IMG/VR virus record: IMGVR_UViG_3300023717_000163
Reading direction: 5' to 3' (one strand)
DNA length: 64,000 nt
Source of the DNA: a virus
In this document: positions 6,109 through 58,410 of the stretch, piece after piece
Numbering within the stretch: position 1 is the stretch's first letter
Layout of the letters: every line of letters begins with the position of its first letter
The notes under the pieces: generated by a model
Databases searched by the model: none
What the model was told of the DNA's origin: nothing
Seen by the model: only the letters and a program-made list of their open reading frames with translations
Position numbers and translations under genes: made by a program

Positions 6109-6288
6109 TTACTACATGTTACATCGTTTTTATTACTGCATTTCTGCGCTTTATCCGGTGCAAACATAACCCCCTAAAATAGTCCGCACAAAAAAGTGTG
6201 TAACCGTTACGCGCTTGTGTGAAAGCATTTTATAATAGATGGAAAGCGTTTCACCCTTAATTGCCTCGCCCACCTATACTTTACAATT

Positions 6289-32982: not shown

Positions 32983-34302
32983 ATGGCAACTAAAGGATTA
33001 GGAAATGAAACATTGGTGACCTCCATTCTGCGTTCCAATACAGTATTGGTGGAAGTTGGTGGTAGTGTCAGACGCATTACCGTGGAAAACTTCATGAATG
33101 CTATTAATAATGGTGACGAACAAATGTTGAGGCAGGTGGCTTGGGGGATTCCAATCAAACAATCAACCCAAAGTAGCACGAACTATGGTGTGATAGGTAA
33201 TACAGCCGCATGGACAGAATACAAGTTGTATTGTGGCCGTTATCTCGTAACGAATGATGGAAGGGCTGCTAAAATGTCCCCTACCAATAGTGCGGTGTTT
33301 GCTGATGGTACTGCGGTGGATGAAACCAAAGGGCATGTGATGTGGATAGGGCCACGTTTGTATTATCGTGTACAGACTGACAGTGTAAGTGGTGTACCAG
33401 TCTTATGGCTCTCGATGCTACCTATTGGCGGTGAGTTTATTGGTGGGGCAAATGGTGGAATGTATAACTGTATCGGTGCATACAAAGGCTCCATGTCAGG
33501 TAGCGCACTTGTTTCACGTTCAGGAGTTGCACCGGCAGGCAGCAAGACAATCAACGCATTTTGGAATGCTGCACAAGTGAACGGTAAGGAATGGGGACTG
33601 ACCGATTACGATCAGAGAAAGCTTATTATGATGTTGGGGCTGTCCCAGTACGGAGATACCAATATTCAAGCCAAACTTGGTTATGGTGTGGGTGGTAGCT
33701 CCAGTAAAGACTTGTGGGCTGCTGCGGCAGCATTGCAAACTGGCGCAACAAAGAGTCTCGGTGACAATTGGGGCAAAATAGCTATTTCTGTGGTGAATGG
33801 AAGTAATACTGGAGTGGATTGTTCACGGGTGAACATGATGGGTATAGAAGATCCTTATGGGTGGCAGTGGGAATTTCTGCAAGGAGTATTTTGCGGTAGT
33901 TCCAACAATAGTGCTCAAAGTGGAACGGAAATTTTCATTTACAAAGGAAACCGTTTACCGACTACTGCTGAATTAGCTGCGCATCCAAATGGTGAATACA
34001 GACAAGCTACCCGTCAGACAGCTTCCGGTCAAGTGCAGGAAATAATTCTTGGGGAGCATTTTGATATTTTCCCGAAAAAGATTGGTGGAAACAGCACTTC
34101 TTATTGGGCTGATTATTCATGGGCAAACACTACTGGGCAGCTGGTTCTTTGGGGCGGTAATGCGTATGCCGGTGCGTATTGCGGCCTCGCTTATGCGGGC
34201 TCGGATAGCGCTTGGTCGAGCTCGCGTGCGGACTTCGGCTCTCGCCTTGCGTATTTTGGGAATTTAACATTTGTTAGCGGTGCATCTTTGATGGCTGCAT
34301 AA
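32983..34302 (+). CDS. DGR target protein 1 (tail-fibre/receptor-binding candidate) with the C-terminal variable repeat VR1
   Basis: 439 aa. The C-terminus LVLWGGNAYAGAYCGLAYAGSDSAWSSSRADFGSRLA matches the TR 120 bp downstream except at TR adenines. Confidence 0.7.
   Translation: MATKGLGNETLVTSILRSNTVLVEVGGSVRRITVENFMNAINNGDEQMLRQVAWGIPIKQSTQSSTNYGVIGNTAAWTEYKLYCGRYLVTNDGRAAKMSPTNSAVFADGTAVDETKGHVMWIGPRLYYRVQTDSVSGVPVLWLSMLPIGGEFIGGANGGMYNCIGAYKGSMSGSALVSRSGVAPAGSKTINAFWNAAQVNGKEWGLTDYDQRKLIMMLGLSQYGDTNIQAKLGYGVGGSSSKDLWAAAAALQTGATKSLGDNWGKIAISVVNGSNTGVDCSRVNMMGIEDPYGWQWEFLQGVFCGSSNNSAQSGTEIFIYKGNRLPTTAELAAHPNGEYRQATRQTASGQVQEIILGEHFDIFPKKIGGNSTSYWADYSWANTTGQLVLWGGNAYAGAYCGLAYAGSDSAWSSSRADFGSRLAYFGNLTFVSGASLMAA
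34139..34246 (+). repeat. DGR variable repeat VR1
   Basis: About 108-bp match to the TR. Of the 15 differences, 14 fall at TR adenine positions. Confidence 0.7.
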
Positions 34303-34425
34303 TAGATTTTGAAATATTAGTTCTTTGAATTTCAATTAATTAAAACCCGTCCACCTTCTCGTTTTACGGCAACGGATAACGGGACGAAAGCCGAAAGGCG
34401 TGGACGGTTGGCAGAGGGGAACAAG

Positions 34426-34532
34426 AGCTGGTTCTTTGGGGCGGTAATGCGAATAACGGTGCGAATTGCGGCCTCGCTTATGCGAACTCGAATAACGATT
34501 GGTCGAACTCGAATGCGAATATCGGCTCTCGC
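34426..34532 (+). repeat. DGR template repeat (TR)
   Basis: Non-coding copy rich in AAT/AAC triplets (reads LVLWGGNANNGANCGLAYANSNNDWSNSNANIGSR). Lies between the target gene and the RT. Confidence 0.7.
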
Positions 34533-34818
34533 CATACTTATTTATCGTAGAGTAATCTGCGAGTTCTCCGAGCCATGACCTTGCAGGATTTATATCGTTG
34601 CAACGTAGTAATCAATTGGTTACGATGTCAGAAAATCAAGAATGCGGAAAGGTTGCCCAATTTGCGAAAGGCAACAAGCGGTGTTAGTAGGTTGGTTCTC
34701 GAAAGCTCCGGGCGAATTATTCAAGCAAGTAAAAACAGCTTGCAGTTATCGGAATAATTAAAATAGTCTGAACAAGACAAAATTGGAAGTATGGTGTAAA
34801 TTTTAAAACAAAGCAGCA

Positions 34819-36362
34819 GTGAATATTGGAAGAAGTGATATTGATTGGAAGAGTCTATCGCATAATGAAATTGATAGAATTATAGCGGAAAGGATAGAGG
34901 CTGACAATAAACGGATAGAAGCAAACGGTGGAAAGAAATCTAAAAGAGCCGGGTATATTCTTGAACGTATAGCAGAGATAAATAATTTACGTGAAGCGGA
35001 CAAAGAAGCACAAGATGGGAAGGTTAAGAAAAACCGCTTTATCAGGCGGCATAATCTACACCCGGAAGAAGACCTCCGAGCTTTGCAGTTGATGATCCTG
35101 ACATTGGATTTTCCGGCACCGGATTATAGCGTAATGAGAGTAAAAAGTGATGCAGGAAAGGTTCGAGATATTGTCAAACAGAAATATTTCCCGTGGCGTA
35201 TATTGCACCATGCAATTATGAGGGTGATTGAAGAAGATGTTTATAGAAATTTGATTTATGATACAAGTGCGTGTATCAAGGGAAAGGGATTACATTTTGG
35301 AGTAAGGAGAATGAAACGTTTTCTTCACCGGTACCCGGAATACAAATGGTTCGTAAAGACTGATTTCAAAAAGTTCTATCAAAGTATTCTTCATGAGCTT
35401 ATTGTTGCTGCATTGAGAAGGAAATTCAAAGATGAACGATTTATTAAATTGATCGAGATAGCTGTTTTATCGTATGACAGCGGAACAGAGTTAGTTGACG
35501 TATTGGAGAATGAAGTTGAACGGAAGAAGAGGTGTTCCGATTGGAGCATTTACAAGCCAACCTATCGGGAATTTTGCGGCAAGCCGGATAGATCATACAA
35601 TGAAGGAGAAATATCGTGTCAAATGCCTGCATAGATATTGCGATGATAATGTTATGCTGGCTCGTTCTAAGGCCGAAGCGTTGTTTCTTATTCGTGCGTA
35701 TGAACGGGAAAGTGCAAAAGTTGGGTTGGTAGTTAAAGCAAACAGTTGTATTGCTCCGATAGGAACAGAAACAAAAAATGGGAACAAAAAGCATAGAAAG
35801 CGAAAACGTAGTAAGAGGAAGAAGGATTAACTTTTTGGGCTATTGCTTCACGAAAGATAATGTTCGGATGCGTAAAAATATGAAAAAGAACTTTGCCCGA
35901 AAGGTGAAACGAATAAAAAGCCGGAAACGTAACCGCGAGATACGAGCTTCATACTGGGGCTGGTGTAAGTGGGGAGATTGTAAGAATTTATGGAGAACAA
36001 TAACAAATAATGATATGAGTTTTGCAGATAAAGGTATCAAACAGAGTGGTAGAACAAAGGACGGAAAGAAGTTCTTCGATGTAAAAGAGACAAGATTGAT
36101 GGATATTCTCAATGTCCCTATAACAGTGGTGGACTTTGAAACGAATGTGAAGACAAAGCAAGGTGAAGGTAGATATTGTGTTCTTTTTGAACAGAACGGA
36201 CAACGTAGCAAATTCATAACGAACTGTTACAATCTGAAAGATGTGTTGGATCAGGCTCGCGAAGCGGAGAATAACGGTCAGAAGATTTTTCCAGTGGAAA
36301 ATGTGATTGTCAAGCGGCGTTCGTTAGGTGACGGGAAGAGTGCTTATTATTTTGAAGAATAA
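34819..36362 (+). CDS. DGR reverse transcriptase, interrupted by two apparent frameshifts (three ORF-track pieces)
   Basis: GTG start. Motif A VKTDFKKFYQSILHELI is in frame 1. Motifs B and C GVPIGAFTSQ and RYCDDNVMLA are in frame 2 (35495..35830). INFLGYCF is in frame 3 (35778..36362). The shifts fall at purine and A runs near 35515-35535 and 35770-35790. Confidence 0.7.
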
Positions 36363-44871: not shown

Positions 44872-45124
44872 TATTTATTTCTTTAGAGTGGCAATTTCTA
44901 TCAAGTATCTCAATGCACTGTTTAATCCCAGTATCAAATCCTTCTTTATAGTCTTTGGTATGCTCACCTAAAACATATATAGTCATTGACAGCCAAAATA
45001 GAAGTATGCCAACGGATTTATACCAGCATGGTAAAGATATAGAAAAGGGTTTTAAGGTGATAGAGAAATCACCGATCCACAGAAGACCGGCAATGAGCAT
45101 GAGTAAATATAAGACTTTCATCAT
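44849..45124 (-). CDS. Small membrane protein
   Basis: 91 aa with two or three hydrophobic helices. Confidence 0.4.
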   Translation of the reverse strand: MMKVLYLLMLIAGLLWIGDFSITLKPFSISLPCWYKSVGILLFWLSMTIYVLGEHTKDYKEGFDTGIKQCIEILDRNCHSKEINNDETVQN

Positions 45125-45611
45125 TTATCATTGTTAAGTTCAACATATTTGCCTTGTAAAGAGCAGTTCCTTAAAATTTCGGCATTTTCCCGGCCAAATG
45201 CAATAAGAACACTACCGCAACCGGGGCTGTCCCCACGTGTTCCATCGGGACGGAAGAATTTTATTCGATTTCTCAAAAACATCATACCAGTTGCTTTCGT
45301 GAAGATGATGTCTTGAAACTTATTGCTGTCACACCGGTTAAAAAGTAGTGCTATACCGTTGCCGTGTTCTGCCAATTTCTCTACAAACTGCCATATAAGC
45401 GGTTTGGAGTACGGAGGGTTAAGCCAAATTCGCCCCCCCAATTTTGTACAAGACCATTGTCCTGCTTGTTGTACATGATTTTTGCAGTAGGCCAAAGAGG
45501 GTGCATGGGAGCACATGGATCAAGGTCAAATTCACCTAATGCTTCAATGATTTCTCGTGGTGTGTACCATTCATCGGAAGCATTTGCAGATCGTTCAAAA
45601 GATGTATTCAT
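45121..45611 (-). CDS. DNA N6-adenine methyltransferase (phage Dam, DEWYTP...NPPY type), frame broken at a G7/C7 homopolymer
   Basis: The N-terminal part (45381..45611) carries DEWYTPREIIEALGEFDLDP. The C-terminal part (45121..45516) carries WLNPPYS. The frames join only if the tract at 45433-45439 has 8 rather than 7 residues. Confidence 0.7.
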
Positions 45612-45844
45612 GTATTACTTACATTTAGGATTTTACGAATTTCTATATGATCACAATTTTCATCAGCCTTTTTCAGAATATAAGCAATCTCTTCTTCCTT
45701 ACTCATGTTCTGTGGACGTTTCGTTGCTTCTGCTCTCAATTCAGAAATAATTTTATCTACTTCGGGATTAGGAGTTTCATATAATTTTTTAAGTTCAGCG
45801 GCTCTACGTTTAATAAGTCGCTCTGTCTTTTTGTTTAATTTCAT
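45608..45844 (-). CDS. Hypothetical protein
   Basis: 78-aa ORF. Confidence 0.45.
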   Translation of the reverse strand: MKLNKKTERLIKRRAAELKKLYETPNPEVDKIISELRAEATKRPQNMSKEEEIAYILKKADENCDHIEIRKILNVSNT

Positions 45845-45845
45845 C

Positions 45846-46745
45846 TTACAACATTTTAAAGTATTCCTTGCATAAAAATCCTTTTCTTGGTGAAAAGTCT
45901 TTGAAGTCGCAACTCATGTATATTTCCTTCCTATCAGCCCAATGTGCCATATCTTTCTGCCACTGTGGAATAATTTGGTGTGGATTGTTCAGATCACGAA
46001 AGGGTTGACAATGTGGAAGAAAACGGCGGCTTTTAGATTTCCAGTAGTTGACGCGCGCAAACGATTCTTTAAAGTCCATAAGGATGCAATACAAGAAATA
46101 TTCCCCTTTATATCCATACTTGTCTATTAAAGCGGAAGCACGTTCAACTTCTGCAATCTGTCCCGGTGTATCGCATCCAAAGCGAATACGTTTAATCCAT
46201 TTTACTTTTGCAAGTAGCCGAGCGATTTCATCCGTGATTAAACGGGCATCCAGTCCTTGATTAAAATCCACTTTGATACCCAGTTTGATGATTTTCTCTA
46301 TTTGCTGCAAGCCATAGTTTGAGGCCAGTATATTATTATCCATAAGGATAGCTTTTTTCCGTCCGGCTGTTATTTCCTCAATATCCATATAAGGTGAGAT
46401 TTTTCCTTCTTTTTTAGGAACAACACACCATTTACACCGATTGGGACACCCACGTGTCAGAAATCCATAGGATAAATTGGAGTCAATATTGTAGATCGAG
46501 TAATCAGGTTGAAGACGATCAACCTCAACTGGAAGAACTTTTTCAATATCATATCCGGTACCACCTTTTTCTATTTGGTTAGTATTGATATAATAGTTAT
46601 AGTCGGGTGTGAAAGTGAAAACTTTAGCTGCATATACTTTATCATATTCACATAGTGGATTATACCATTCCACTTGATCGCCTCTTGCTTTGTGGTAAGC
46701 ACTGATCTTCATAAGTGCTAAATTGGGGGGGGGAATTGCTATCAA
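45846..46745 (-). CDS. Radical SAM protein
   Basis: GCPNRCKWC (CxxxCxxC). A G9/C9 tract lies 16-24 nt upstream of the ATG at 46709, or inside the gene if the TTG at 46745 is the start. Confidence 0.55.
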   Translation of the reverse strand: MIAIPPPNLALMKISAYHKARGDQVEWYNPLCEYDKVYAAKVFTFTPDYNYYINTNQIEKGGTGYDIEKVLPVEVDRLQPDYSIYNIDSNLSYGFLTRGCPNRCKWCVVPKKEGKISPYMDIEEITAGRKKAILMDNNILASNYGLQQIEKIIKLGIKVDFNQGLDARLITDEIARLLAKVKWIKRIRFGCDTPGQIAEVERASALIDKYGYKGEYFLYCILMDFKESFARVNYWKSKSRRFLPHCQPFRDLNNPHQIIPQWQKDMAHWADRKEIYMSCDFKDFSPRKGFLCKEYFKML

Positions 46746-46766
46746 CGGCTAAAATTCCAATATTCA

Positions 46767-47114
46767 TTATTCTTCAAATTTAGGTTTTGGCATCCATGCT
46801 ATCGGTTCCCATGACGGAGGTATGCTGCTCATTGAAGAGTAAATTGGGTTACCTTTGTACGTGTCATAGATATAACCATCCATGCAGAACCATACATTGT
46901 TGCTATATGTACCGTTAAAAATCGCACCATGTTTACATAGAATGATGATGTCTTCATTTTCATCCGGTAACCGTTCTTTCACTGATACCCACGGAGGTTG
47001 TTTTGTCTGCCATCTGGCTCCTTCTTTGAATCCTATTCTAAAACAAGTTATTTTATCCCAGTCAGGATGTACGCCTCCAATTTCATTTACGGCTTCTTCT
47101 AATGTCTGTTTCAT
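46767..47114 (-). CDS. DUF551-like phage protein
   Basis: PWVSVKERLPDENEDIIILCKHG matches the DUF551 signature. Confidence 0.5.
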   Translation of the reverse strand: MKQTLEEAVNEIGGVHPDWDKITCFRIGFKEGARWQTKQPPWVSVKERLPDENEDIIILCKHGAIFNGTYSNNVWFCMDGYIYDTYKGNPIYSSMSSIPPSWEPIAWMPKPKFEE

Positions 47115-47116
47115 AT

Positions 47117-47785
47117 CTATTTATCAAATAAATTAGTTTGAACCAACCTTCCTCTCTCTGTTTTTATCTCCCCAAAACATTCCCGGTGAAAACGTTCTTC
47201 TTGTGCTTCAAAGTATTCTTCATCTATTTCAGTTGCATAGAAATCGAATCCAAGTCCATAAGCAGCTATTCTGCTGCTTCCTGAACCTAAATGACTATCA
47301 AAAATTTTGTCTCCCTCTTTGGCGTTTTTTCTTAATATTTCAGCATATAATTTCACTGGCTTCTGACAACGATGGATATTTCCACCTCGTTCTCCAATTG
47401 TACACCGGTTTAGAGTTATGATCCGAAGAGCCTTGTCAAAACTACTCCATGCCAATTCACCGTCAGACATAGTTAATCCATGTTGTCCTTTATCCCAAAC
47501 AATCCAACCCATTTTGGGAGGAAGATAGGTAGTAAAGTAGTTACCACCAAAAATTATTTGATTCTTCGATACCCTGAATAGTTCCTCAAAATATTTCTTT
47601 CCGGGGGGGGACTTATCCCAATCCTTTCTTTTATATTGTTTAAAGCCTAAATGCTTCGGCATCCCACCTTTGTGCATTATGTCTATGCCATACTGGGGAT
47701 CGACTATCGCTAAATCAAAGAACTTATCAGGAATCCCCTTCATGTATTCCATACAGTCCATGTTATATACTTCGCTTATCGGCAT
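47117..47785 (-). CDS. DNA methyltransferase, beta-class (motif IV before motif I); N6A or N4C
   Basis: DLAIVDPQY upstream of FDSHLGSGSS. An in-frame G8 tract encodes SPPGK. Confidence 0.6.
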   Translation of the reverse strand: MPISEVYNMDCMEYMKGIPDKFFDLAIVDPQYGIDIMHKGGMPKHLGFKQYKRKDWDKSPPGKKYFEELFRVSKNQIIFGGNYFTTYLPPKMGWIVWDKGQHGLTMSDGELAWSSFDKALRIITLNRCTIGERGGNIHRCQKPVKLYAEILRKNAKEGDKIFDSHLGSGSSRIAAYGLGFDFYATEIDEEYFEAQEERFHRECFGEIKTERGRLVQTNLFDK

Positions 47786-47799
47786 TATTTATATCCTTT

Positions 47800-48033
47800 C
47801 TATTCTGTTATTATTAATTTCATGTGCATTCTTGAAATCATTTTCTCTTCTTCTTTCAACTTATGATAATAATCTATAGCTTCATCTTTAGTATTGAATG
47901 TACCAACACACGAATAATGCCAAGATCCGAAAGGATCTTTGAGGATATACAAGTTGTATGAACCTAAGACCGTTTTCGCCAAATAGTAAGGATCTCGTAT
48001 CATAATGTTCATTCCATTTTTATTTACTCGCAT
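47800..48033 (-). CDS. Hypothetical protein
   Basis: 77-aa ORF. Confidence 0.4.
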   Translation of the reverse strand: MRVNKNGMNIMIRDPYYLAKTVLGSYNLYILKDPFGSWHYSCVGTFNTKDEAIDYYHKLKEEEKMISRMHMKLIITE

Positions 48034-48875
48034 AGTCCATGAAACAGACTCATGCAGGCATATCCACCTTCCGGCTCGAACATATCAGGGGTATGTTCTT
48101 TAACGTACTCCAAAACTTCCTCTACATAAGGATATTGTTTGTTTTTACAGAATCTTTGAGGTATGTATAATGGAGGAAAGAAGGAATGTCCTACGCTTTT
48201 CTCTGCTTGAATTAGGCGTTGGCACATTTTAGGATCATTTTTGGCTATGAGTTCGATTTCTTTGTGCCGACACATGATACACGGGAAACATCCAACACGT
48301 GAGAATCCACGATAATACAATGGATTCGGTTTCTGCCCTGCATCCAGTATGCAATCTATAACTTGCTGTGCACTCCATTTGAAGATAGGTCTTAGAACAG
48401 AAGCGTCATATTGGGAACACCATTCTTTGACATCCTTACTTCGGTAGTTTTCAGTTCTTCCTTTCTTATTAGGTTGAAAATACGATTTGAAGTACATACA
48501 TTCCTCTTCCATTGCCGCACGTGCTGTACTTTCTCCGGCTCTGATACCTTGTATGATAATGCAGCTTTCTTTCAAAGAAAGTACATAATCAATCATTGGC
48601 TTCATTTTTAGTTCACTGGTACAAAATCGTGCATTCGTGGAAGGAAATCTTTTCTTATGAGCTGCCAAAGACACAAAATCATATTTTGATTTGAGAGTTA
48701 TAAGTCTTACACCCATTTGCAGACAAACATCATTCACATGTTTATATGTGTCAGGGTGTTCCCAACCGGTGTCACAAAACACAGCGGTTAAATTCCCCCC
48801 CCCATATTGTTTGAAGGCTTGGATTAAACATGCTTGTGAATCCTTACCACCTGAAAAACTTACTAATATTTTCAT
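48024..48875 (-). CDS. PP-loop ATP pyrophosphatase, PAPS-reductase/QueC superfamily
   Basis: SFSGGKDS P-loop and a C-terminal GCFPC...C Cys cluster. An in-frame C9 tract encodes YGGGN. Confidence 0.6.
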   Translation of the reverse strand: MKILVSFSGGKDSQACLIQAFKQYGGGNLTAVFCDTGWEHPDTYKHVNDVCLQMGVRLITLKSKYDFVSLAAHKKRFPSTNARFCTSELKMKPMIDYVLSLKESCIIIQGIRAGESTARAAMEEECMYFKSYFQPNKKGRTENYRSKDVKEWCSQYDASVLRPIFKWSAQQVIDCILDAGQKPNPLYYRGFSRVGCFPCIMCRHKEIELIAKNDPKMCQRLIQAEKSVGHSFFPPLYIPQRFCKNKQYPYVEEVLEYVKEHTPDMFEPEGGYACMSLFHGLCE

Positions 48876-48877
48876 TT

Positions 48878-49207
48878 TTATGCCATTTCAATTTTTACAT
48901 ATTCATTTTTATTAATCCCGGCACTACCTTTGGGAGAATACACTAATCGGCCTCCATTATCCAATATCTTTTGTACATCTTTCATAGCTTGGTATGCTTG
49001 GGTATAGTCTTTGTATTCTTGGTGGCCTATTGGATATTTGCAATATCTTCTACCACCGTCAGGCATGATGCTGATACCGAATACTGTTTCATAAGTTTTT
49101 CGGTTGAAATTCTGTTGAGTCCTTACTTTCATTTTTTTTGATACATTTTCCCAGTTTAAGTATAAATACACATTCGTTATCCGGTGCTCCCCAATTGGTG
49201 TTACCAA
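48878..49207 (-). CDS. Hypothetical protein
   Basis: 109-aa ORF. Its start may be the internal ATG, since it overlaps the next gene by 119 nt. Confidence 0.35.
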   Translation of the reverse strand: MVTPIGEHRITNVYLYLNWENVSKKMKVRTQQNFNRKTYETVFGISIMPDGGRRYCKYPIGHQEYKDYTQAYQAMKDVQKILDNGGRLVYSPKGSAGINKNEYVKIEMA

Positions 49208-49505
49208 CTCCGATGGTTATAGATTCAAGTTCAAAAAGCATTGTCCGTTTGGTGTAGCCAAAACGGAAGCGAACATGAGTGTATTCTTTGGGGTGAAAGC
49301 CGTTTCCACGTGTAATACAAGAAAAACAAATAGCTTTCTTACAATAGAAACCAGTCTTTTCATAGGAATTGCGACCTCCACATTTTGCTAATCTTCCGAT
49401 CCAGTATTTCTTGATCTCTCTGTATTCTTCTTTCTTATTTCCGGATTCGATCATTTCATACCATTTTGCTTTTAATGGCAGGTCAAGGATTTTCATATTA
49501 ACCAT
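49089..49505 (-). CDS. ASCH-domain protein
   Basis: SGNKKEEYR fits the GxKxxExR ASCH signature. Confidence 0.45.
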   Translation of the reverse strand: MVNMKILDLPLKAKWYEMIESGNKKEEYREIKKYWIGRLAKCGGRNSYEKTGFYCKKAICFSCITRGNGFHPKEYTHVRFRFGYTKRTMLFELESITIGVGNTNWGAPDNECVFILKLGKCIKKNESKDSTEFQPKNL

Positions 49506-49739
49506 AGTCTAAAAGAGTTGCGGATTCTGTTTGTCGTGAAGGATTTTTTGAACACGTTCAATTTCTTCATCTACTTCACGCTCAATTTGTTTACTTATTC
49601 GTAAATCTATCTGTCTCTTATTTTTTAAATATTCTTTTTGGCAACGGCGCATTTCCACCACTTTGTCGAAAAAATCTTTTGGAGTCATAGATTTAAAAGG
49701 TATGGAAAAGGCCGCTTTGATGCGGCCTCCCCAGTGTGA

Positions 49740-50324
49740 TTACTTTTTTCCAATCAGAAAGTCTTTCCACAATTCTTTGAATTGTTCTCCAAAGTAAATT
49801 GCGATTTCACTTGATTTTACAGCAAGGCGAGAGCCGATATACGCAGACGAGGACGACCAAGCGGAAGCCGAGTTCGCAGAAGCGAGGCCGCAAAACGCAC
49901 CGAAATTCGCAGAACCGCCCCAAAGAACCAGCCGATTACGATCCTCTTCGTCCATTTCATCAATTTCTTTTTGATTATAAAGATAAAACCACGGCGTATA
50001 ACGGTATTCATCTTTAGTAAATCGTGGAAAATCAGGATCGTTGTTTAACGCACGGGCAATAGTGTATAGTTTGATGTAGGCGAGGTGTGCAATATCAGCC
50101 ACTTCTTCTTTGTGTCCGTCTTCATCTTCAACAAGTAGGCGAACAATGGGTTTTACACCTATTGCTTCACAAGCATCTTCGTAGGTTTTAATATTGTGAT
50201 AATCTGTATAATCCGGCTTTTGCTTTCCGAATAGGGCTGTTAGAATACTAATTGCTTTAGGACAGTCGTTTGCTTCACTAAAAGCGGCTGTTACCTTTTC
50301 TTGTGTGATTTTAAGTTCTGACAT
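49740..50324 (-). CDS. DGR target protein 2 (194 aa) carrying the remote variable repeat VR2
   Basis: C-terminal LVLWGGSANFGAFCGLASANSASAWSSSSAYIGSRLA. All 17 nucleotide differences from the TR fall at TR adenines. Confidence 0.6.
   Translation of the reverse strand: MSELKITQEKVTAAFSEANDCPKAISILTALFGKQKPDYTDYHNIKTYEDACEAIGVKPIVRLLVEDEDGHKEEVADIAHLAYIKLYTIARALNNDPDFPRFTKDEYRYTPWFYLYNQKEIDEMDEEDRNRLVLWGGSANFGAFCGLASANSASAWSSSSAYIGSRLAVKSSEIAIYFGEQFKELWKDFLIGKK
49826..49933 (-). repeat. DGR variable repeat VR2 (about 15 kb from the TR, on the opposite strand)
   Basis: Reverse complement aligned to the TR by hand across its full ~108-bp length. The 17 mismatches are all A-to-N. Confidence 0.65.
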
Positions 50325-50332
50325 AATGTAAA

Positions 50333-51085
50333 TTATTTATTGTTAATACTATATCCGAATAATGCAAAATCTCCCCGGCACGGATCATCCGGGAAAATTG
50401 TTTTCATGTAATTGGTTACTTGTTGAACCATTTTCCAGTCCTCTGTTTTGCGTGTTGTTATCCCAAGCTGATGTGCCATTTTTGCAACATGCGCATCCAA
50501 TGGTATGTATAATTCTGTTGGATGAATAATAGTCCAAATACCTAAATCCACCGGCGATTTTCGTACTACCCACCGTAGAAACAGACAAATACGCTTGCAT
50601 GGAGAATCACGCTCCAATTTTGGAATACCTTTTACGCCACCAAAATCTGTTTGTATTTCACGGATAACATTGTTGTAACCCTCATAAAATACTTCCAAAT
50701 CATCCCATTCCTGATATATGTTGTACAACCGCTGGCAAATGCAGAAGAAGTCATGGTAGGTGAACATACGGTAGAAGGTATTTGTATTTTCTTTGTATTG
50801 TTCCCATACTTTGTTCATAATGAAGTCATAAGGAGAATTACCCATTAGATTATCCAAAATTTCTGCTTGCTGCATTATCAGTTTGCGATTCCCGAAAGCT
50901 ATCCATGAAGTAAGAAAGGCACTGATTTCTATGTCCTTTTTATCACTGTACTTATGTGGGAAGAATATAGGATCATCTTTTATAAAATCAGGTGTTTCAA
51001 ATTGTTTTGCCCAGTCAAGTAGTTTGTTTCTTAGTTCTTCCATAATATTCTTCTTTCCATTTTTTGAAAGCGGCTTCTTTATCAT
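50333..51085 (-). CDS. HhH-GPD superfamily-like protein (DNA glycosylase fold)
   Basis: IPLDAHVAKMAHQLGI resembles the vDTHvfRv.nRlgl helix-hairpin-helix motif of Nth/MutY-type enzymes. Confidence 0.4.
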   Translation of the reverse strand: MIKKPLSKNGKKNIMEELRNKLLDWAKQFETPDFIKDDPIFFPHKYSDKKDIEISAFLTSWIAFGNRKLIMQQAEILDNLMGNSPYDFIMNKVWEQYKENTNTFYRMFTYHDFFCICQRLYNIYQEWDDLEVFYEGYNNVIREIQTDFGGVKGIPKLERDSPCKRICLFLRWVVRKSPVDLGIWTIIHPTELYIPLDAHVAKMAHQLGITTRKTEDWKMVQQVTNYMKTIFPDDPCRGDFALFGYSINNK

Positions 51086-51698
51086 TTGATTTCATCCTTT
51101 GTATGAATGATTGATGGGATTCCAATAATTCTTTGGCCTCTTCATCTCCATTTTCCGATCTTTCAGTTAGATGTTTGATATATTCTCCGTAGAACATTCC
51201 AGTGCTGTTATTATTTTGTTCATGGGCTTCATTAATTGAAAGAGAAGAAACAATTTCATCACGCTGTACATCGTATTCATTTAACCAGCCGAGAATGATA
51301 TTACCGTCCAGTCTATCGTAAATCTTACCGGAAGCCATAGCATTACGGAAACACAATTTGATTTCCTCCAATTTGAGATAATAGAATCTGTCTATTATTA
51401 GATCAGCGGTAAGTGCCACTTGAACATCATTCATCGTTTTTCCAACATTGAAAAAAGACACAAGCTCGTTAATCGCAATTACCAGTATGGCTCTTGCGCC
51501 AGCCAATGTGATTTCTTTTCTTATAACGGAGAGTGGTAGGTTAGGAGTGTTGAGAACAGCTTCTTTAATCGAACTTACGTGCAATCCCTTGTAATACTCC
51601 GCTTGCAAGGTCAGCAAGTCTTTCAACGCTTTCTTTTCGGTTGCCGGGAGATTGCTGTTGACTTGAATTAAGTTGTTTCCCATACTTGTTAAAATCAT
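51015..51698 (-). CDS. Hypothetical protein
   Basis: 227-aa ORF. The likely start is the internal ATG (MGNNLIQ), given a 134-nt overlap with the upstream ORF. Confidence 0.4.
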   Translation of the reverse strand: MILTSMGNNLIQVNSNLPATEKKALKDLLTLQAEYYKGLHVSSIKEAVLNTPNLPLSVIRKEITLAGARAILVIAINELVSFFNVGKTMNDVQVALTADLIIDRFYYLKLEEIKLCFRNAMASGKIYDRLDGNIILGWLNEYDVQRDEIVSSLSINEAHEQNNNSTGMFYGEYIKHLTERSENGDEEAKELLESHQSFIQRMKSNDKEAAFKKWKEEYYGRTKKQTT

Positions 51699-51984
51699 TA
51701 TTAGACCATCTGACTAAACGTTTGGAAACTTCAAATGTACGTTCCTTCTCAAAGCGCATTTTCCGGCCTCCGCATTCAGTCCAATACTCAAAAAAGTCCT
51801 TCAACATATCATCAGGATATTTTCCTCTATACATGAGGACTTCACTTCTGAATTTGTCTTTCCTTGCAGAAAGAGAATCCTTATTCATATTCATCTTATG
51901 GCCTAATCCGGCCATGAATGCTTGTTCCAATGTTGCATCGGGATGATCCCGACACCATTGGGCTGCTAATTCTTCTGATTTCAT
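51565..51984 (-). CDS. Hypothetical protein
   Basis: 139-aa ORF. Its C-terminal ~45 aa overlap the next gene in another frame. Confidence 0.4.
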   Translation of the reverse strand: MKSEELAAQWCRDHPDATLEQAFMAGLGHKMNMNKDSLSARKDKFRSEVLMYRGKYPDDMLKDFFEYWTECGGRKMRFEKERTFEVSKRLVRWSNNDFNKYGKQLNSSQQQSPGNRKESVERLADLASGVLQGIARKFD

Positions 51985-51989
51985 TTGAT

Positions 51990-53095
51990 TTATAATTTAG
52001 ATAACCAATATTTCCATACTCGTGAGGCTACTTGTGCCATCATAACGGGTGGTACACTCATTCCACAGATATAATGTGGGGATTGGTTGAGGAAATGATA
52101 ATCTTGTGGAAATGTGGATATATTACATACTTCTGACCGTGATAAATATATAGGCTGCTTAAAAGGAATAATTGAGTCTGCATGAGTTGTTAGGGTGTAG
52201 CTTACTTTGTTCTCATATAGATATTGTTGATTAAAAAAGCCTCGTTTTCCAGTTTGTTTCTTATAGGCCTCTGCCAAAGCAATATCTCCTGCCACTCTCT
52301 GCTCAAATAACTTTCTCATTTTTACGCCAATAGGCTTTCCCTTGTAATCCGCATATTCCCCATAATATATTTCCGATTCATTAAATTCCATGTCGATGTA
52401 TGGCTCAACATTGAAGAGGTCTGAAACTTTTAGGAAATGGGCTCCCAAATCATGTCTGATACATATAAAGAATACACGTTCTCTTTTTTGAGGTACTCCC
52501 ATTTTAGAAGCATCAAGAAGAAAATGCTGACAGTAATAACCAGCTTCCTCAAAGCCTTTGTATATACGTCTGACATAATCAATCGCATTCCCTAAAAGAA
52601 GTCCTTTTACATTTTCAGCAATAACGACTTTAGGTTTTAAGCGTTTGGCAAGTGCAATAAAATCAAAAAAGAGCGTGTCTAAAACTTGTGTCTTTTGACC
52701 TTCCTTGAATTTCTTTTCTTTACCCCACGCATCTTCACGTAATCCCGACATGCTAAATGTACTGCAAGGTGGTGATCCGTCCAATATATCTAAATTGTAC
52801 AGTTCTTCGGGAAGATTATTCCTTTTCACTAAATCACGAATATCTTCCAAATAACTATACTGGGGATGATGGTTTGTTTCATAGCATTTCATCATTCGTG
52901 GATCAATCTCATTACAGCCAATAACATCGTAACCTGCTATTTTGTAACCCATAGTAGAGCCACCGCCACATGCAAAACAAGAAAATACCTTTCCCTTATC
53001 TTTAGTAAAAACAGCATCTTCTAAAGACCAGCGATAAGGATAGAGATGTTGTGTATGGGGGGGGTAATTACATCTTTCATCATTCCACCTCCCAT
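51990..53095 (-). CDS. DNA cytosine-5 methyltransferase whose N-terminus (motif I) is out of frame at a G8 tract
   Basis: PPCSTFSMSG and ENVKGLL lie in the annotated ORF. Motif I FSCFACGGG is upstream of the annotated ATG, in frame but with no start codon. The ATGs at about 53084-53095 join this frame only if the G8 tract (53057-53064) becomes G9. Confidence 0.7.
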
Positions 53096-53616
53096 AATTC
53101 AGCTACTCTTTTGAACTCTTCATCAGCTGGAACCGGGCAATCTTTGATCCATTGCATATCTTTTACTTTCCATAACGAAAGGTCTGTGTTGTCAGGAATA
53201 TGCTTTTTAATATCAGGAAAAAGATTGAGCCGAAGAGATTTACTTTCCATAAGTTCATCTTTGTAATCCAACAAAAAATTATTGGCCTCCAATAAACTAT
53301 GAACATCATTAACAGAATGTGGAGTGTAAACAACTCCATCGAAGTATCTGATATAATTGGGGAGCATATCAGCCAGTGCCGTATATAGAAATAATTTTCC
53401 TTTATTTCCATAGGCCAATTTTTGAACGGTTTTGATACTTTCAGCCAAATTTGCCAGTTTTTCAGGAAACAAAAGTGGTTCTCCACCAGTTATCATGATC
53501 TCTTTGTAATTAAAGTGCTCAACAACTGGTAATTTTGAAAAATCCCATGAGTTGTTGCAACACATAGGACATTTGTTCGGACATTTGGTTGTAACCAATA
53601 GACGTAACTTTTCCAT
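53080..53616 (-). CDS. Radical SAM protein, QueE/PflA-activase-like
   Basis: N-terminal CPNKCPMC (CxxxCxxC) and MITGGEPLL. Confidence 0.5.
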   Translation of the reverse strand: MEKLRLLVTTKCPNKCPMCCNNSWDFSKLPVVEHFNYKEIMITGGEPLLFPEKLANLAESIKTVQKLAYGNKGKLFLYTALADMLPNYIRYFDGVVYTPHSVNDVHSLLEANNFLLDYKDELMESKSLRLNLFPDIKKHIPDNTDLSLWKVKDMQWIKDCPVPADEEFKRVAELWEVE

Positions 53617-53892
53617 TTATAATGATATTGTTTGGGTGTATTTCAATTCTCCGGTATATCCACGTGCTTTCAATTCTGCGATAAGTTCCCGTGGAGAAAA
53701 TTTTGCCAATTCAGGATTGGAATATATTTTCTTCAAATTCCCCCCCCCCGGAGTTTTCTTACGGTTTCTGGCATAAACATTACCGCACTCTTTACAATAT
53801 GTCTGCAATCCATCTTCGGTTGAAGCATTTTTCCAAAACTCACTGACCGGAAGTTCCCGGCCACATTTGCTACATTTTTTTAATTTTTCCAT
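53617..53892 (-). CDS. Zinc-ribbon protein
   Basis: CSKCGRE...CKECGN. An in-frame C10 tract encodes PGGGN. Confidence 0.45.
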   Translation of the reverse strand: MEKLKKCSKCGRELPVSEFWKNASTEDGLQTYCKECGNVYARNRKKTPGGGNLKKIYSNPELAKFSPRELIAELKARGYTGELKYTQTISL

Positions 53893-54347
53893 TATTCCTT
53901 TTCTTTAATTCTACCATATTCACATATTAGTAAGGCATCCGAAGTTGCCAATGTAACTTTTGCATACGGGAACAGCTGTTGGGCTTTCTTCTTTAAGATG
54001 TTTTTCCATTCTGTCTTACCCAATTTGTCTGTATTTCGTAATCCTATAGTTTTTTGCCAAGTTTGTGGAGATACTGTTACTGTCGGAATCCCACAAGCTA
54101 TCAATCCCATAGTCAGCTGTCCGTAACTTTCTCCAAAAACAAAAGAGGCAGAAGCACTTTGTCCGGTCATGCCATTCACTCGTTCCAAATAACAAACGCT
54201 ATTTTCTTTGTATATGGAGAGAAAATCTAATAAGTCTTTGGGAGTTGGTGGCATTTTGATACACTCCAATAATTTGTTATTCTCGGTGTCGTACACTACA
54301 ATACCACCGTTTTTGCCAACATCTATACCTATGATCCTTCGTTTCAT
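53892..54347 (-). CDS. RuvC-like Holliday junction resolvase
   Basis: IIGIDVGKNGGIVVYD at the N-terminus and TSDALLICEYG near the C-terminus, matching the RuvC fold. Confidence 0.55.
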   Translation of the reverse strand: MKRRIIGIDVGKNGGIVVYDTENNKLLECIKMPPTPKDLLDFLSIYKENSVCYLERVNGMTGQSASASFVFGESYGQLTMGLIACGIPTVTVSPQTWQKTIGLRNTDKLGKTEWKNILKKKAQQLFPYAKVTLATSDALLICEYGRIKEKE

Positions 54348-54350
54348 AAA

Positions 54351-54518
54351 TTATACTTTTTTGTTTATAAATCTTTTGAGCTTAATTACATCTTTCTTTC
54401 CAAGCCTTAGTGCTTCACTGGTCTTGATGTCAGAAGGTGAAGCTTTACAATTCTCGGTTATCCTTTCAAAATGTCGGATAAAGGATTTTAGGAAATAGTC
54501 GGGAATTTCAACTTTCAT
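54351..54518 (-). CDS. Small hypothetical protein (ATG-initiated part of the track ORF)
   Basis: MKVEIPDYFLKSF... The track ORF's TTG-initiated extension covers the tRNA-like T-arm. Confidence 0.3.
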   Translation of the reverse strand: MKVEIPDYFLKSFIRHFERITENCKASPSDIKTSEALRLGKKDVIKLKRFINKKV

Positions 54519-54532
54519 AATGATTGATTTAT

Positions 54533-54697
54533 GAGAATAAGCCCGGACTCGAACCGGGAACTGTTGCAATCAGGATTTTCGTTTCTGCTTCCGTTTGTAC
54601 GTATGTCAAGTGTTAATAGCATGATTACCTGACTCGTGATGCTATTCGTGCATTTTTACCACAGAAACTAAGCGTCTTCCAATTCCGCCACTTATTC
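54533..54697 (-). other. tRNA-like RNA element with a 7-bp acceptor-like pairing and a canonical T-arm, about 165 nt long
   Basis: On the minus strand: 5' GAATAAG...U8...GG...cccggTTCGAGTccggg-CTTATTC-t. The T-stem is a perfect 5 bp. No canonical anticodon arm could be placed. Confidence 0.3.
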
Positions 54698-55096
54698 GTT
54701 TGCCTCCACAATAGAGGCATTCTTATATGAACAAAAAGACTCTTTGTAGTATCTACCGCCGTGGAGCGTATGCAGCGTACTCGGCTCGACTTGCAAAGAG
54801 AAGAAAAAAGGTGAGGCATGATAGTTCCCGGATAGGCGGCCAAGCCACACCGGGAGAAGCTGATTATTAATCGGGTTAATGATTATTGTTTTAAGAATTT
54901 AGCAAAAGTCTTGATTGAGCTTTCATTATTACTTTTTAAAGAGGCCAATTCTGTATTTTTAGAAGTTAGCGTAGAAATAACAGATTTATTCTTTTCGATT
55001 TCTGTATCAATATCACTATTAAGTGTTTCCAAATCGGCTTTTGCTTGTGTAAATTGAGACAATATTGTATCTCTTCTTTGTTGAAATGTCGGTATA

Positions 55097-55888
55097 CTAT
55101 TTTGTTATTTTTAGAAATTCAGGAGCAATACCATACAAAGGGCTTGTTCCATCCCATTTGTCAATGAACTGTTTATATAATATTTCTTTTGTCAGACCTC
55201 TTGACTGAATTAGAGCCTGCTCGGTTTTTAACTGTTCCAGTTCATTGCGCTTCTTCTGTTCCTCAATTTGTTGATCCAACACGGAGATATTGGTATTCAC
55301 TTCATTTCTACTATCAATTTTTTCGCGAACTTTATCGGAGAACTCCAACTGGGCAGAGAATGTGAGTAATTGCAGACCTCTTTTTTCAAACTCTTTGTCA
55401 ACTATCTGTTCCAATCGTTTCTCAAACACTAATGAACCTCCATCAGCCATTAAACTGTCAGTCTTATGTTTCCGACTTTCCTCTTTTATCAAATCATATA
55501 TACGTGGCTCCAAAATGTTATCTTCTAACGAAGACATGAAATCACTTCCACGGCCAATATGCTTGTTGTCAAAGACAACATCAATGGCACGGTTCTTGAT
55601 AACTTTATAGCTATATGTGGGACGTGCCTTGAACTCTGTATTATCGGCTGCTTTCAGTGTGACAGCTTCGGCAAATTCTCCACGCTGATCGAATAGCGGA
55701 ACTTGAAAAAGCTCTGTGCCTAATTCCCATGTAGATACCTTACCGGAAACGATTTTAAAATCTTCTTTTCCTTGTTTGCCGTAGTTCTCCATAAGGACAC
55801 CGGCATAATTGGGAGCAACTCTTTCGCATGAAGCAAACAAAACAACGGCAAATAATGCCACAATCAAAAAATCAATCTTTCTTTTCAT
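55097..55888 (-). CDS. Lipoprotein with coiled-coil regions
   Basis: Signal and lipobox (LFAVVLFASC); 263 aa. Confidence 0.5.
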   Translation of the reverse strand: MKRKIDFLIVALFAVVLFASCERVAPNYAGVLMENYGKQGKEDFKIVSGKVSTWELGTELFQVPLFDQRGEFAEAVTLKAADNTEFKARPTYSYKVIKNRAIDVVFDNKHIGRGSDFMSSLEDNILEPRIYDLIKEESRKHKTDSLMADGGSLVFEKRLEQIVDKEFEKRGLQLLTFSAQLEFSDKVREKIDSRNEVNTNISVLDQQIEEQKKRNELEQLKTEQALIQSRGLTKEILYKQFIDKWDGTSPLYGIAPEFLKITK

Positions 55889-56045
55889 TTTCTACTTTTT
55901 TAATGATATTATAAACTATAAATGCTACAGTCAGCATGATTATTGAAATTCCAAGCCACGCATTTATGTGATTGAATACGCGGTTGCCAATGAAGAAAGC
56001 CGATACGACAAGTACCGGCTTCCAGTATTTCTTTACAGACTTCAT
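55866..56045 (-). CDS. Small membrane protein (59 aa)
   Basis: Translated by hand (MKSVKKYWKPVLVVSAFFIGN...), with two hydrophobic helices. Overlaps both neighbours. Confidence 0.3.
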
Positions 56046-57509: not shown

Positions 57510-57812
57510 TCATAACGGTTTTAAGCCATATCGGGCAGAACCGACAAATGGCTGTGGGTTAGTCCTTATGTTTGCTTTGTGTATATCATCTGTACGATGA
57601 TTGAATAATCGGGGTAATCCCGTTATTTTGTCATATACAACCAGTTCAGACGATACATAACAAATAAAGCCTTTCAGTCGCTCTTTCAACCATGCGTTCT
57701 GATAGGCTCTGCGTTCACGATACTCTTGGTAGCTCATTCCTTTGGGACGAGCTGTGAGAAGGGGAGTGTAATTTCTCGCCCCCCCCGATTTAGATTTACT
57801 CTTTCCCATCAA
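57510..57812 (-). CDS. Hypothetical basic protein
   Basis: 100-aa ORF. An in-frame G8 tract encodes SKSGGARN. Confidence 0.45.
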   Translation of the reverse strand: MMGKSKSKSGGARNYTPLLTARPKGMSYQEYRERRAYQNAWLKERLKGFICYVSSELVVYDKITGLPRLFNHRTDDIHKANIRTNPQPFVGSARYGLKPL

Positions 57813-58410
57813 TCAAATTTTTATATTGTTTTTCTGAAACGAACTTGTCGCAGTTCTTATACCAAGTGCCATCATTTATTTTGTATGGGTTGCTCGTTTC
57901 ATCCACTTCATTCATAATACCGACTACCGCATTTTCTTTGTTGTTATCATCCCATACGATAACAATATCGCCGACAGTCGGGATATATTCAGGCTGTAAC
58001 TTCTCAAAATTGAAGGAGTAATGTTTTTCTTCCTTCATGGCGGCAAGCATCTTTGCCTTTTCCTCTTCTGTAGCTTTACGGAATCCCTTCATGCCTCCGA
58101 TACCAGCTTCGGGTGTGAGTTTTACAAAAACTCTGTCACCTTCATCGTTGGAAGGAACATAAGCGACAAGGCCGAAAGGTACTTTTATTGCTGGTAAAAA
58201 AGGAAGCGGCCTTTCTTCTCTAATTTCAGAGAGAATCATCATGCTGCCCCCTCCGCGATTTGGATTGATAATTACGTCACCGGGGATGAATGTCTCACCT
58301 TCAAACTCAAATTTACCCCCCCCCATAACTTTTTGGGTAGATTGCATACTTTCTTCTTTCACGATTTTTACCATGTGTCCTTCGGGCACTTCAACTGTTA
58401 CTGTTCTCAT
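57796..58410 (-). CDS. Hypothetical protein
   Basis: 204-aa ORF. An in-frame G9 tract encodes MGGGK. Confidence 0.5.
   Translation of the reverse strand: MRTVTVEVPEGHMVKIVKEESMQSTQKVMGGGKFEFEGETFIPGDVIINPNRGGGSMMILSEIREERPLPFLPAIKVPFGLVAYVPSNDEGDRVFVKLTPEAGIGGMKGFRKATEEEKAKMLAAMKEEKHYSFNFEKLQPEYIPTVGDIVIVWDDNNKENAVVGIMNEVDETSNPYKINDGTWYKNCDKFVSEKQYKNLIDGKE

Follow-up and report, generated by a model that had tools for sequence, protein, structure and literature searches.

IMG/VR virus record IMGVR_UViG_3300023717_000163, analysed here as a window of 64,000 nucleotides, carries between positions 45,121 and 54,347 genes for three DNA methylases, two radical S-adenosylmethionine (radical-SAM) proteins, a PP-loop protein resembling PAPS reductases, a DUF2400 protein, a putative ASCH protein and a DUF551 protein. 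Do these genes encode one pathway that installs a complex base modification in phage DNA, as a reading made from the sequence alone had proposed, or do they act separately? We favour the second answer. At a probability of roughly 70%, the interval consists of independent anti-restriction and nucleic-acid-enzyme cassettes, several of which are under contingency-locus switching by runs of G or C.

The interval shares 99.2% identity with Bacteroides phage BI-TP1 and 98–98.6% with five other LoVEphage-type genomes; Bacteroides intestinalis and Phocaeicola vulgatus are the hosts from which these near-identical phages were induced. All genes of the interval lie on the minus strand, within a long, tightly packed minus-strand block that extends from RecT/exonuclease genes (~60.5 kb) to genes for RtcB, MazG and SSB (~40.5 kb). 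The sequence-only reading had placed its gene families on one strand within 9 kb, and family searches confirm most of the families at those positions, all in minus orientation. Judged by its sequence, the interval forms the accessory portion of the leftward early (replication/recombination) genes in a temperate, LoVEphage-type phage of Bacteroides and Phocaeicola.

Length-variable G/C runs in the early genes

The window contains eight G or C runs of at least 7 bases. All of them fall between 45.4 and 58.4 kb, and each lies within the first half of a minus-strand gene or immediately ahead of it. Specifically, the run-bearing genes are those of the three methylases, the PAPS-reductase-like protein, a 305-amino-acid (305-aa) radical-SAM protein, a zinc-ribbon protein and two further open reading frames (ORFs), orf100 and orf204 (Table 1). 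A first-order Markov model predicts 2.8 such runs per 64 kb and produced at most 7 in 200 simulations. The density of G/C runs is 2.7–3.1 per 10 kb in the LoVE-like early region, compared with 0.2 in the other 50 kb of BI-TP1 and 0.28 in 100 other Bacteroidales phage loci. No counterpart was found in the window for a G8 run at position 38,800 of BI-TP1.

Seven of the runs occur in 3–6 lengths each among LoVEphage contigs and GenBank genomes. Across genomes, the run measures 6–10 bases in the Dam-type methylase gene, 7–10 in the beta-class (N6_N4) methylase gene, 8–12 in the PAPS-reductase-like gene and 6–11 in the zinc-ribbon gene. In the same region, A/T runs of six are nearly all invariant, and a T8 run varies in 1/9. 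Identical 600-nt flank haplotypes carry several run lengths (7, 8, 9 and 10 for Dam), and GenBank LoVEphage-type genomes differ in which run genes are split and which are intact.

Most alleles encode an intact protein once the run is set in frame: 14/14 for Dam, 14/17 for the PAPS-reductase-like gene, 7/10 for the beta-class methylase, 7/8 for the zinc-ribbon gene, 5/5 for orf100 and 8/10 for orf204. A relative at ~86% identity (synonymous divergence, dS, 0.8–1.1) keeps the runs at the same codons; in it, the Dam gene, the PAPS-reductase-like gene and orf204 are each one base off frame. The ratio of nonsynonymous to synonymous divergence (dN/dS) against this relative is 0.03 for Dam, 0.04 for the PAPS-reductase-like gene, 0.10 for the zinc-ribbon gene and 0.16 for orf204. 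The runs are polymorphic in length and conserved in position; switching at a high rate and in a reversible manner is what we infer from this pattern.

Alternative protein forms were counted as exact matches in a collection of 15 billion proteins. The exact in-frame Dam protein and the exact 76-aa Dam fragment each occur on 1000 contigs or more, some of them chromosomal and several megabases long. For the C5 methylase, a 320-aa form occurs on at least 1000 contigs and a 364-aa form on 73, and long and 5'-shortened forms of the PAPS-reductase-like protein are both abundant. ON and OFF protein forms are both seen in complete Bacteroidaceae chromosomes. In the window, Dam and the C5 methylase are predicted to be OFF and the 305-aa radical-SAM gene is 5'-shifted, while the beta-class methylase, the PAPS-reductase-like gene, the zinc-ribbon gene, orf100 and orf204 are predicted to be ON.

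GenBank already has annotations for the genes of the interval, often as fragments owing to the runs. Run genes are repeatedly called fragments or 'hypothetical' in public records, a warning for annotation.

Table 1. Genes and runs of the interval, with two run-bearing ORFs from the same block
Feature	Position	Strand	Evidence or remark
Dam-type N6-adenine DNA methylase	45121..45611	-	Pfam PF05869 on both fragments; 163 aa in frame
305-aa radical-SAM protein	45846..46767	-	phrog_9298, E 3.6e-121; motif CPNRCKWC (CxxxCxxC)
DUF551 protein	46767..47114	-	Pfam PF04448, 27 bits vs cut-off 22
Beta-class N6A/N4C DNA methylase	47117..47785	-	Pfam PF01555, phrog_67, PADLOC MTase_II
PAPS-reductase-like PP-loop protein	48024..48875	-	Pfam PF01507, E 8e-25, 88 bits; intact
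138-aa protein	49089..49505	-	phrog_625, family without assigned function
DUF2400/TIGR02757 protein	50333..51085	-	E 6e-68; HhH-GPD glycosylase fold
C5 cytosine DNA methylase	51990..53083	-	Pfam PF00145, E 1e-41; 364 aa in frame
178-aa minimal radical-SAM protein	53080..53616	-	CPNKCPMCC; ITGGEPLL
91-aa zinc-ribbon protein	53617..53892	-	PHROG matches: Zn-ribbon parts of endonuclease VII, HNH and Lar-like proteins
G10 run of the zinc-ribbon gene	53740-53749	coding strand	codon ~48, in frame
RuvC-like Holliday junction resolvase	53892..54347	-	phrog_1770, E 8e-27; replication/recombination backbone gene; end of interval
100-aa ORF (orf100)	57510..57812	-	coding-strand G8 run 57779-57786, codon ~9
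204-aa ORF (orf204)	57796..58410	-	coding-strand G9 run 58316-58324, codon ~29

Three methylases and a proposed switch

The sequence-only reading had listed three DNA methyltransferases of different classes, and all three stand above curated family thresholds. The Dam-type enzyme scores 32.2 bits against PF05869 (cut-off 28.1) and contains the motifs DEWYTP and NPPY. A frameshift at the G7 run of its coding strand (45433–45439) divides the gene in two; at the in-frame length, G8, NWGGRIWLNPPY is restored. The beta-class enzyme scores 45.3 bits against PF01555 (cut-off 26.7), with DPQY near the N terminus and FxGxG (FDSHLGSGSS) near the C terminus. It is the sole intact one of the three in the window, and its coding-strand C8 run (47603–47610) is located at codon ~59. 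The C5 enzyme scores 143.5 bits against PF00145 (cut-off 22), and its reading frame begins with ATGATG at 53083, which overlaps the stop codon of the gene upstream. On the coding strand, the run at 53057–53064 is C8 and out of frame, and C9 would be in frame and give a 364-aa protein with motif I (FACGGG); the visible 320-aa ORF, which starts at 52952, does not include motif I.

LoVEphages carry two allelic forms of the C5 methylase (51990–52952), the first ~96–99% and the second ~77–79% identical to the protein of the window; in OY731444 the second is annotated with 368 aa. The two forms would fit an exchange of target-recognition domains.

Among the ORFs neighbouring the methylases, several of which have no assigned function, no nuclease-family match was found except the zinc-ribbon protein, which lacks a nuclease part. 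The label 'epigenetic' suits the methylases, with three classes and no restriction enzyme recognised beside them. By our own hypergeometric estimate, with ~7 run genes among ~45 early genes, the probability that all three methylases bear runs by chance is ~0.003. Because all three bear runs, we argue that DNA-modification genes are preferred switch targets.

We propose the following mechanism. The three orphan methylases, which by family would produce N6-methyladenine (Dam type), N6-methyladenine or N4-methylcytosine (beta class) and C5-methylcytosine, would methylate replicating phage DNA and allow it to evade host restriction-modification. Slippage at G/C runs of 7–12 bases in at least seven genes (the methylases, the PAPS-reductase-like gene, the zinc-ribbon gene and two ORFs) would shift the reading frame, and a phage population would contain the genes in varying combinations of ON and OFF. 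The benefit is probably bet-hedging, in that methylation blocks classical restriction while exposing the DNA to modification-dependent restriction. By association with runs, a host-dependent cost is probable as well for the PAPS-reductase-like gene, the zinc-ribbon gene and the two ORFans. The PP-loop, two radical-SAM, DUF2400, putative ASCH and DUF551 proteins would each act alone.

A close precedent is agt of phage T2, in which an A9 run frameshifts frequently and reversibly, trading sensitivity to TgvAB against sensitivity to McrA/BC (bioRxiv 10.1101/2025.10.21.683753; Gomez, Barrick, Waters). Both cases place a homopolymer in a phage DNA-modification gene, and in both protection from one restriction class would be paid for with sensitivity to another. 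In T2, the run is A9, the enzyme is a glucosyltransferase, the phage is virulent and the proof is experimental, whereas in LoVEphage the runs are G/C tracts of 7–12 bases in a temperate gut phage and the evidence is comparative. Unlike the single T2 gene, the three methylase genes, the PAPS-reductase-like gene and other genes of LoVEphage bear runs, in one block and conserved between species.

Hypermutable polyG tracts also generate phenotypic diversity in Campylobacter (Fletchervirus) phages (Sorensen et al. 2021 Cell Rep 35:109214, as cited in PMC12823448). As far as that citing account goes, the likeness to LoVEphage lies in several polyG tracts within phage genes and in the diversity of the population, and the difference in that LoVEphage is a Bacteroides phage with its tracts in DNA-modification genes. 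The tracts of the Campylobacter phages reportedly occur in genes for receptor binding and related functions, with an effect on host recognition. The genome of Campylobacter itself uses polyG switching.

Orphan phage methylases, such as Dam of T1 and P1 or those of multi-methylase phages, are alike in belonging to the early region and in having no cognate nuclease recognised beside them. LoVEphage has three classes, and its enzymes are unlike the others in that each bears a hypervariable homopolymer, two of which are out of frame here. Bacterial phasevarions (Haemophilus, Neisseria, Helicobacter, Campylobacter) similarly have simple-sequence repeats in methylase genes and ON/OFF methylation. 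They are chromosomal restriction-modification or orphan methylases that reprogram host expression, whereas the LoVEphage genes belong to the early set of a phage and are presumably silent in the lysogen. Switching in Bacteroides is described as invertase-mediated in a 2025 review of phase variation, which does not mention phage-encoded cases. Phage contingency loci and phase-variable bacterial methylases are already known, and in the open-access literature we found no report of G/C runs of this kind in LoVEphage or any Bacteroides phage.

The conserved hypervariable G/C runs, which on comparative evidence appear to switch DNA-modification genes, are in our view what makes the interval most interesting. 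Of the temperate phages in the human gut, LoVEphage is one of the most prevalent, and it has been induced from several Bacteroides and Phocaeicola species. In a recent study, species-level members were induced from B. thetaiotaomicron, P. dorei and P. vulgatus and were present in ~8% of gut viromes. If the runs do switch by slippage, each lysate would be a mixture of epigenotypes pre-adapted to differing host restriction, which would help to explain the multi-genus host range. The phage would also provide a natural, population-scale counterpart of the laboratory result with T2 agt. Moreover, a conserved switch run would be a marker of phage genes with host-dependent costs, here the PP-loop gene, the zinc-ribbon gene and the two ORFans.

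The remaining enzymes and competing explanations

The PAPS-reductase-like protein has an SGGKDS motif and many invariant cysteines, including those of GCFPC and a C-terminal HGLCE. Its gene bears a coding-strand G9 run (48795–48803) at codon ~25. The sequence-only reading had assigned the protein to a PP-loop PAPS-reductase/QueC superfamily; the PAPS_reduct part of this assignment holds (E 8e-25), and the QueC part does not, with the NCBIfam cut-off missed more than tenfold in bits. Specifically, NCBIfam QueC gives 24.9 bits against a cut-off of 378, over the N-terminal PP-loop only, and Pfam QueC gives 18.6 against 22. The NCBIfam DndC equivalog model gives 24.6 bits against a cut-off of 290. 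Among PADLOC profiles, SspD scores 79 bits (residues 4–228) and BrxP 58, compared with 88 for the generic PAPS_reduct profile. In an AlphaFold2 model (predicted local distance difference test, pLDDT, 84.5), the protein comes nearest to APS/PAPS reductases and CysD; the fold search places QueC 27th, with a template modelling score of 0.34, and TtuA, MnmA and TrmU are among the lower matches. The best sequence match among solved structures is 21fy chain C ('PptA', 270 aa; E 1e-5), over the N-terminal 93 residues.

Both proteins that had been read as radical-SAM enzymes carry a CxxxCxxC motif, and the 305-aa protein is further supported by phrog_9298. In Pfam, the 305-aa protein scores 22.7 bits, under the cut-off of 29.5, and its nearest solved or curated family is MiaB (E ~0.09). 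Its true start is ATG 46767, and a C9 run at 46725–46733 shifts the frame of roughly the first 14 codons. At this site, TCCCC or C5 is found in most relatives, which are in frame. An internal ATG just 3' of the C9 run could still yield a radical-SAM protein shortened by ~17 residues.

The 178-aa radical-SAM protein scores 17.4 bits in Pfam (cut-off 29.5), and GGEPL is invariant in its family. It had been called QueE-like on account of TGGEPLL; the searches do not support this name. No NCBIfam QueE model is matched at E<=0.01 by either radical-SAM protein, a profile of the 178-aa family searched against solved structures finds no QueE (the best match is an unnamed radical-SAM core, E 0.13), and GGEP is a general radical-SAM motif. 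The 178-aa gene is part of the conserved backbone of LoVE-like phages. Relatives at ~53% identity occur in IMG/VR phage contigs of ~100 kb, a crAss-like size, next to genes that look, by sequence, like those for a family-A DNA polymerase, ThyX, a MazG-like protein, a phosphatase and a kinase. This neighbourhood suggests a role in replication or nucleotide metabolism.

The assignment of an HhH-GPD glycosylase fold to the DUF2400 protein is borne out by its AlphaFold2 model (pLDDT 93.3), which predicts a two-domain helical fold with an Asp after the helix-hairpin-helix. This residue, D197, is invariant and is located in IPLDAHV (LDxHV motif). EndoIII and MutY carry a comparable VDTHV motif. The closest solved fold is the queuosine glycosylase Qng1. 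On Parabacteroides chromosomal contigs, an AlkD-like DNA_alkylation protein (PF08713), a DUF2400 protein and a LOG/Lysine_decarbox family protein form a conserved trio (genes at 5292–7349), and in ~45-kb phages a longer DUF2400 protein adjoins an AAA ATPase and an RNase_T exonuclease. The trio and the likeness to Qng1 may bear on the function of TIGR02757. Nothing useful was found in the open-access literature on DUF2400/TIGR02757, 'PptA' or the LoVEphage methylases.

The remaining two small proteins fared differently. The DUF551 assignment stands, with PF04448 matched above its cut-off. The proposed ASCH reader fold of the 138-aa protein has no Pfam match even at E<=10, and the protein is called 'ASCH' only in BI-TP1 and PV4-TP1, whose annotation is Foldseek-based.

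Do these genes travel together? Segments of 10 kb on either side of relatives of four of the genes in IMG/VR were searched for every gene of the region at tblastn-level similarity. The 305-aa radical-SAM gene (~80% identity) has 37 loci outside the LoVEphage species, and its commonest neighbour cluster is present in only 8 of them. Clustering of neighbours over these 37 loci revealed no conserved partner; a PAPS-reductase-type gene, different from that of LoVEphage, is nearby in six. At 41 loci with relatives of the PAPS-reductase-like gene (62–75% identity), DUF2400, the small radical-SAM gene and the ASCH-like gene are never nearby. The same clustering was used in a search for dedicated partners of the PAPS-reductase-like and 178-aa radical-SAM genes and gave loose minority associations only.

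Within LoVEphage, the genes also vary singly. Individual genomes are without the PAPS-reductase-like gene, the ASCH-like gene or the whole Dam-to-N6_N4 segment, and OY731444 has another methylase in place of the 305-aa radical-SAM gene. In public metagenomes (P0134, P0138, P0181), the PAPS-reductase-like and 305-aa radical-SAM genes are joined in frame at three junctions, with the intervening genes deleted; owing to these chimeras, the protein collection clusters the two families together. We considered the fusions as a Rosetta-stone link and rejected them as such, because the three junctions truncate both enzymes and the chimeras look like deletion products. An obligate multi-enzyme pathway would not tolerate such gene-by-gene loss, replacement, fusion and frameshift. 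We therefore read the region, on comparative grounds, as a mosaic of independently exchangeable single-gene cassettes rather than as one pathway.

The alternative that survives best, which we nonetheless consider unlikely, is that the non-methylase enzymes act on RNA, tRNA or nucleotides and, together with RtcB and MazG, counter host anticodon nucleases or nucleotide-based defences as a kit for tRNA repair/modification or for sanitising nucleotides. The same gene block indeed encodes RtcB and a MazG-like pyrophosphohydrolase, the weak best matches of the 305-aa radical-SAM protein are MiaB-family tRNA methylthiotransferases, and relatives of the 178-aa protein lie among genes resembling, by sequence, those of nucleotide metabolism. 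PP-loop enzymes with Fe-S cysteine motifs include tRNA thiolases, and TtuA, MnmA and TrmU stand low in the fold list. However, all of these likenesses are weak or at superfamily level, and some LoVEphage variants without RtcB keep the other genes, with the reverse also seen. In addition, the best defence-related profile of the PAPS-reductase-like protein is SspD, a DNA phosphorothioation protein, and its gene shares the switch-run type of the methylases, for which reason we group it with the DNA-modification genes. On balance, the evidence slightly favours stand-alone nucleic-acid or nucleotide enzymes for the radical-SAM, PP-loop and DUF2400 proteins, with an RNA or tRNA role as a live alternative.

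A more specific and speculative version of the cassette interpretation, to which we give little credence, is that the PAPS-reductase-like protein is a stand-alone DNA modifier related to SspD/BrxP (for example of sulfur, backbone or base type, with host sulfur donors) that is toggled by polyG in the same way as the methylases. The 305-aa radical-SAM protein may then be a second modifier, and virions would carry an epigenetic code, combinatorial and phase-variable, including at least one non-methyl mark.

It is also improbable that the frameshifts are no switch at all, either because the region is decaying, dispensable cargo or because the run lengths are sequencing or assembly errors. Large deletions and chimeric fusions are tolerated in the region, and homopolymers of 8–12 bases are error-prone on several sequencing platforms. 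Decay does not fit, as correcting the run to its in-frame length restores an intact ORF in most alleles and dN/dS is 0.03–0.16 over a dS of ~1 with the run kept at the same codon. Error cannot create an approximately 10-fold enrichment of runs in the block, placed in or before first gene halves, and A/T runs of six in the same contigs are nearly all invariant. ON and OFF states are each found on at least 1000 contigs, including finished chromosomes. Given their placement and conservation, sequencing error is insufficient to explain the runs, though it may add length noise.

Several points nevertheless weigh against independent, switched cassettes. In-frame states make up ~38% across assemblies, near the 1/3 expected without selection on frame, a point that also speaks for decay or error. 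Part of the ±1 scatter in length could be homopolymer sequencing or assembly error; the run evidence comes from assemblies rather than reads, and heterogeneity within a population and reversibility are extrapolated from it. Methylation targets and the anti-restriction role are deduced from enzyme families. The co-occurrence comparison spanned ±10 kb at tblastn-level similarity only, and it did give some loose recurrence: a PAPS-reductase-type gene is near the 305-aa radical-SAM gene in 6/37 and 4/~30 unrelated loci, and PAPS-reductase relatives are sometimes near a methylase, DUF551-like or radical-SAM gene. Some pairwise functional links between genes of the region are therefore conceivable.

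The proposed hypermodification pathway was compared with the closest complete phage genome, the 71.6-kb BI-TP1, for which the comparison covered the structure-assisted annotation of 97% of the genome. No DpdA/TGT, FolE or QueD is present in the Pfam, NCBIfam and PHROG matches of the region or in the BI-TP1 annotation, in agreement with the sequence-only reading, which had recognised none. Likewise, no DndA/IscS-type desulfurase, DndD/E or SspA/B/C was found in the PADLOC, Pfam and NCBIfam matches of the region or in that annotation, which also lists no own DNA polymerase and no nucleotide-level modification enzymes. The interval resembles the 7-deazaguanine (DpdA/QueC/QueD/QueE/FolE) and Dnd/Ssp systems in having a protein of the PP-loop ATP-pyrophosphatase superfamily and radical-SAM proteins, and in the alignment to the SspD profile. 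It is unlike them in that a transglycosylase, FolE, QueD, QueE, a desulfurase, DndD/E and SspB/C were not found here. Hence, neither the family searches, in which no protein qualified as QueE, QueC, DndC, DpdA, TGT, FolE or QueD, nor the neighbourhood comparison, which gave no recurrent partner set and loose minority associations only, supports the resemblance to a 7-deazaguanine-like pathway: its defining enzymes were not found, each non-methylase gene has relatives in other phages without the rest, and the LoVEphage genes are individually variable.

That the methylase, radical-SAM, PP-loop and glycosylase-fold proteins form one such pathway, 7-deazaguanine-like or of new chemistry, is thus very improbable: it would account for co-location on one strand within 9 kb, for the likeness of the PP-loop protein to the DNA-modification proteins SspD and BrxP and for the minority of unrelated phages in which a PAPS-reductase-type gene adjoins the 305-aa radical-SAM gene, but not for the absence of TGT/DpdA, FolE, QueD, nucleotide-level modification enzymes and a DNA polymerase from the annotation of that 97% of BI-TP1, the unmatched QueE, the QueC and DndC scores far under their cut-offs with QueC at rank 27, the occurrence of each gene elsewhere without the others, or the LoVEphage genomes that independently miss, replace or frameshift single genes. 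The gene set should not be catalogued as a 7-deazaguanine-like or other hypermodification pathway.

Other features of the gene block

A strong terminator-like hairpin at 49705–49732 (minus strand), with 11 pairs, 7 of them G-C, and a T-rich tail, is located between a phrog_11581 gene and the next small ORF. It could split the block into two transcription units. A scan of the window for sigma-70 promoters gave 56 sites against 57 expected, with Bacteroides promoters differing from that consensus.

Beyond the end of the interval, the ~750 nt from 54351 to 55097 contain only short, doubtful ORFs; positions 54542–54558 on the minus strand read CCCGGTTCGAGTCCGGG, which is similar to a tRNA T-arm. 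At the homologous site of the LoVEphage type genome, an intron-containing 'tRNA-His/Undet' is annotated. ARAGORN and Rfam scans found no tRNA or RNA family in the 64-kb window.

Further along the block, a T6 run at 55896–55901, in a 57-aa ORF (55872–56045), has 6, 7, 8 or 9 bases in LoVEphage contigs and is the most variable of the few A/T runs in the region whose length changes.

On the plus strand, the region at ~32983–35634 is the counterpart of BI-TP1 gp11–gp12, annotated as a reverse transcriptase and an Mtd-like tail protein, namely a diversity-generating retroelement. The phage may thus combine a retroelement that diversifies receptor binding with homopolymer switches for DNA modification.

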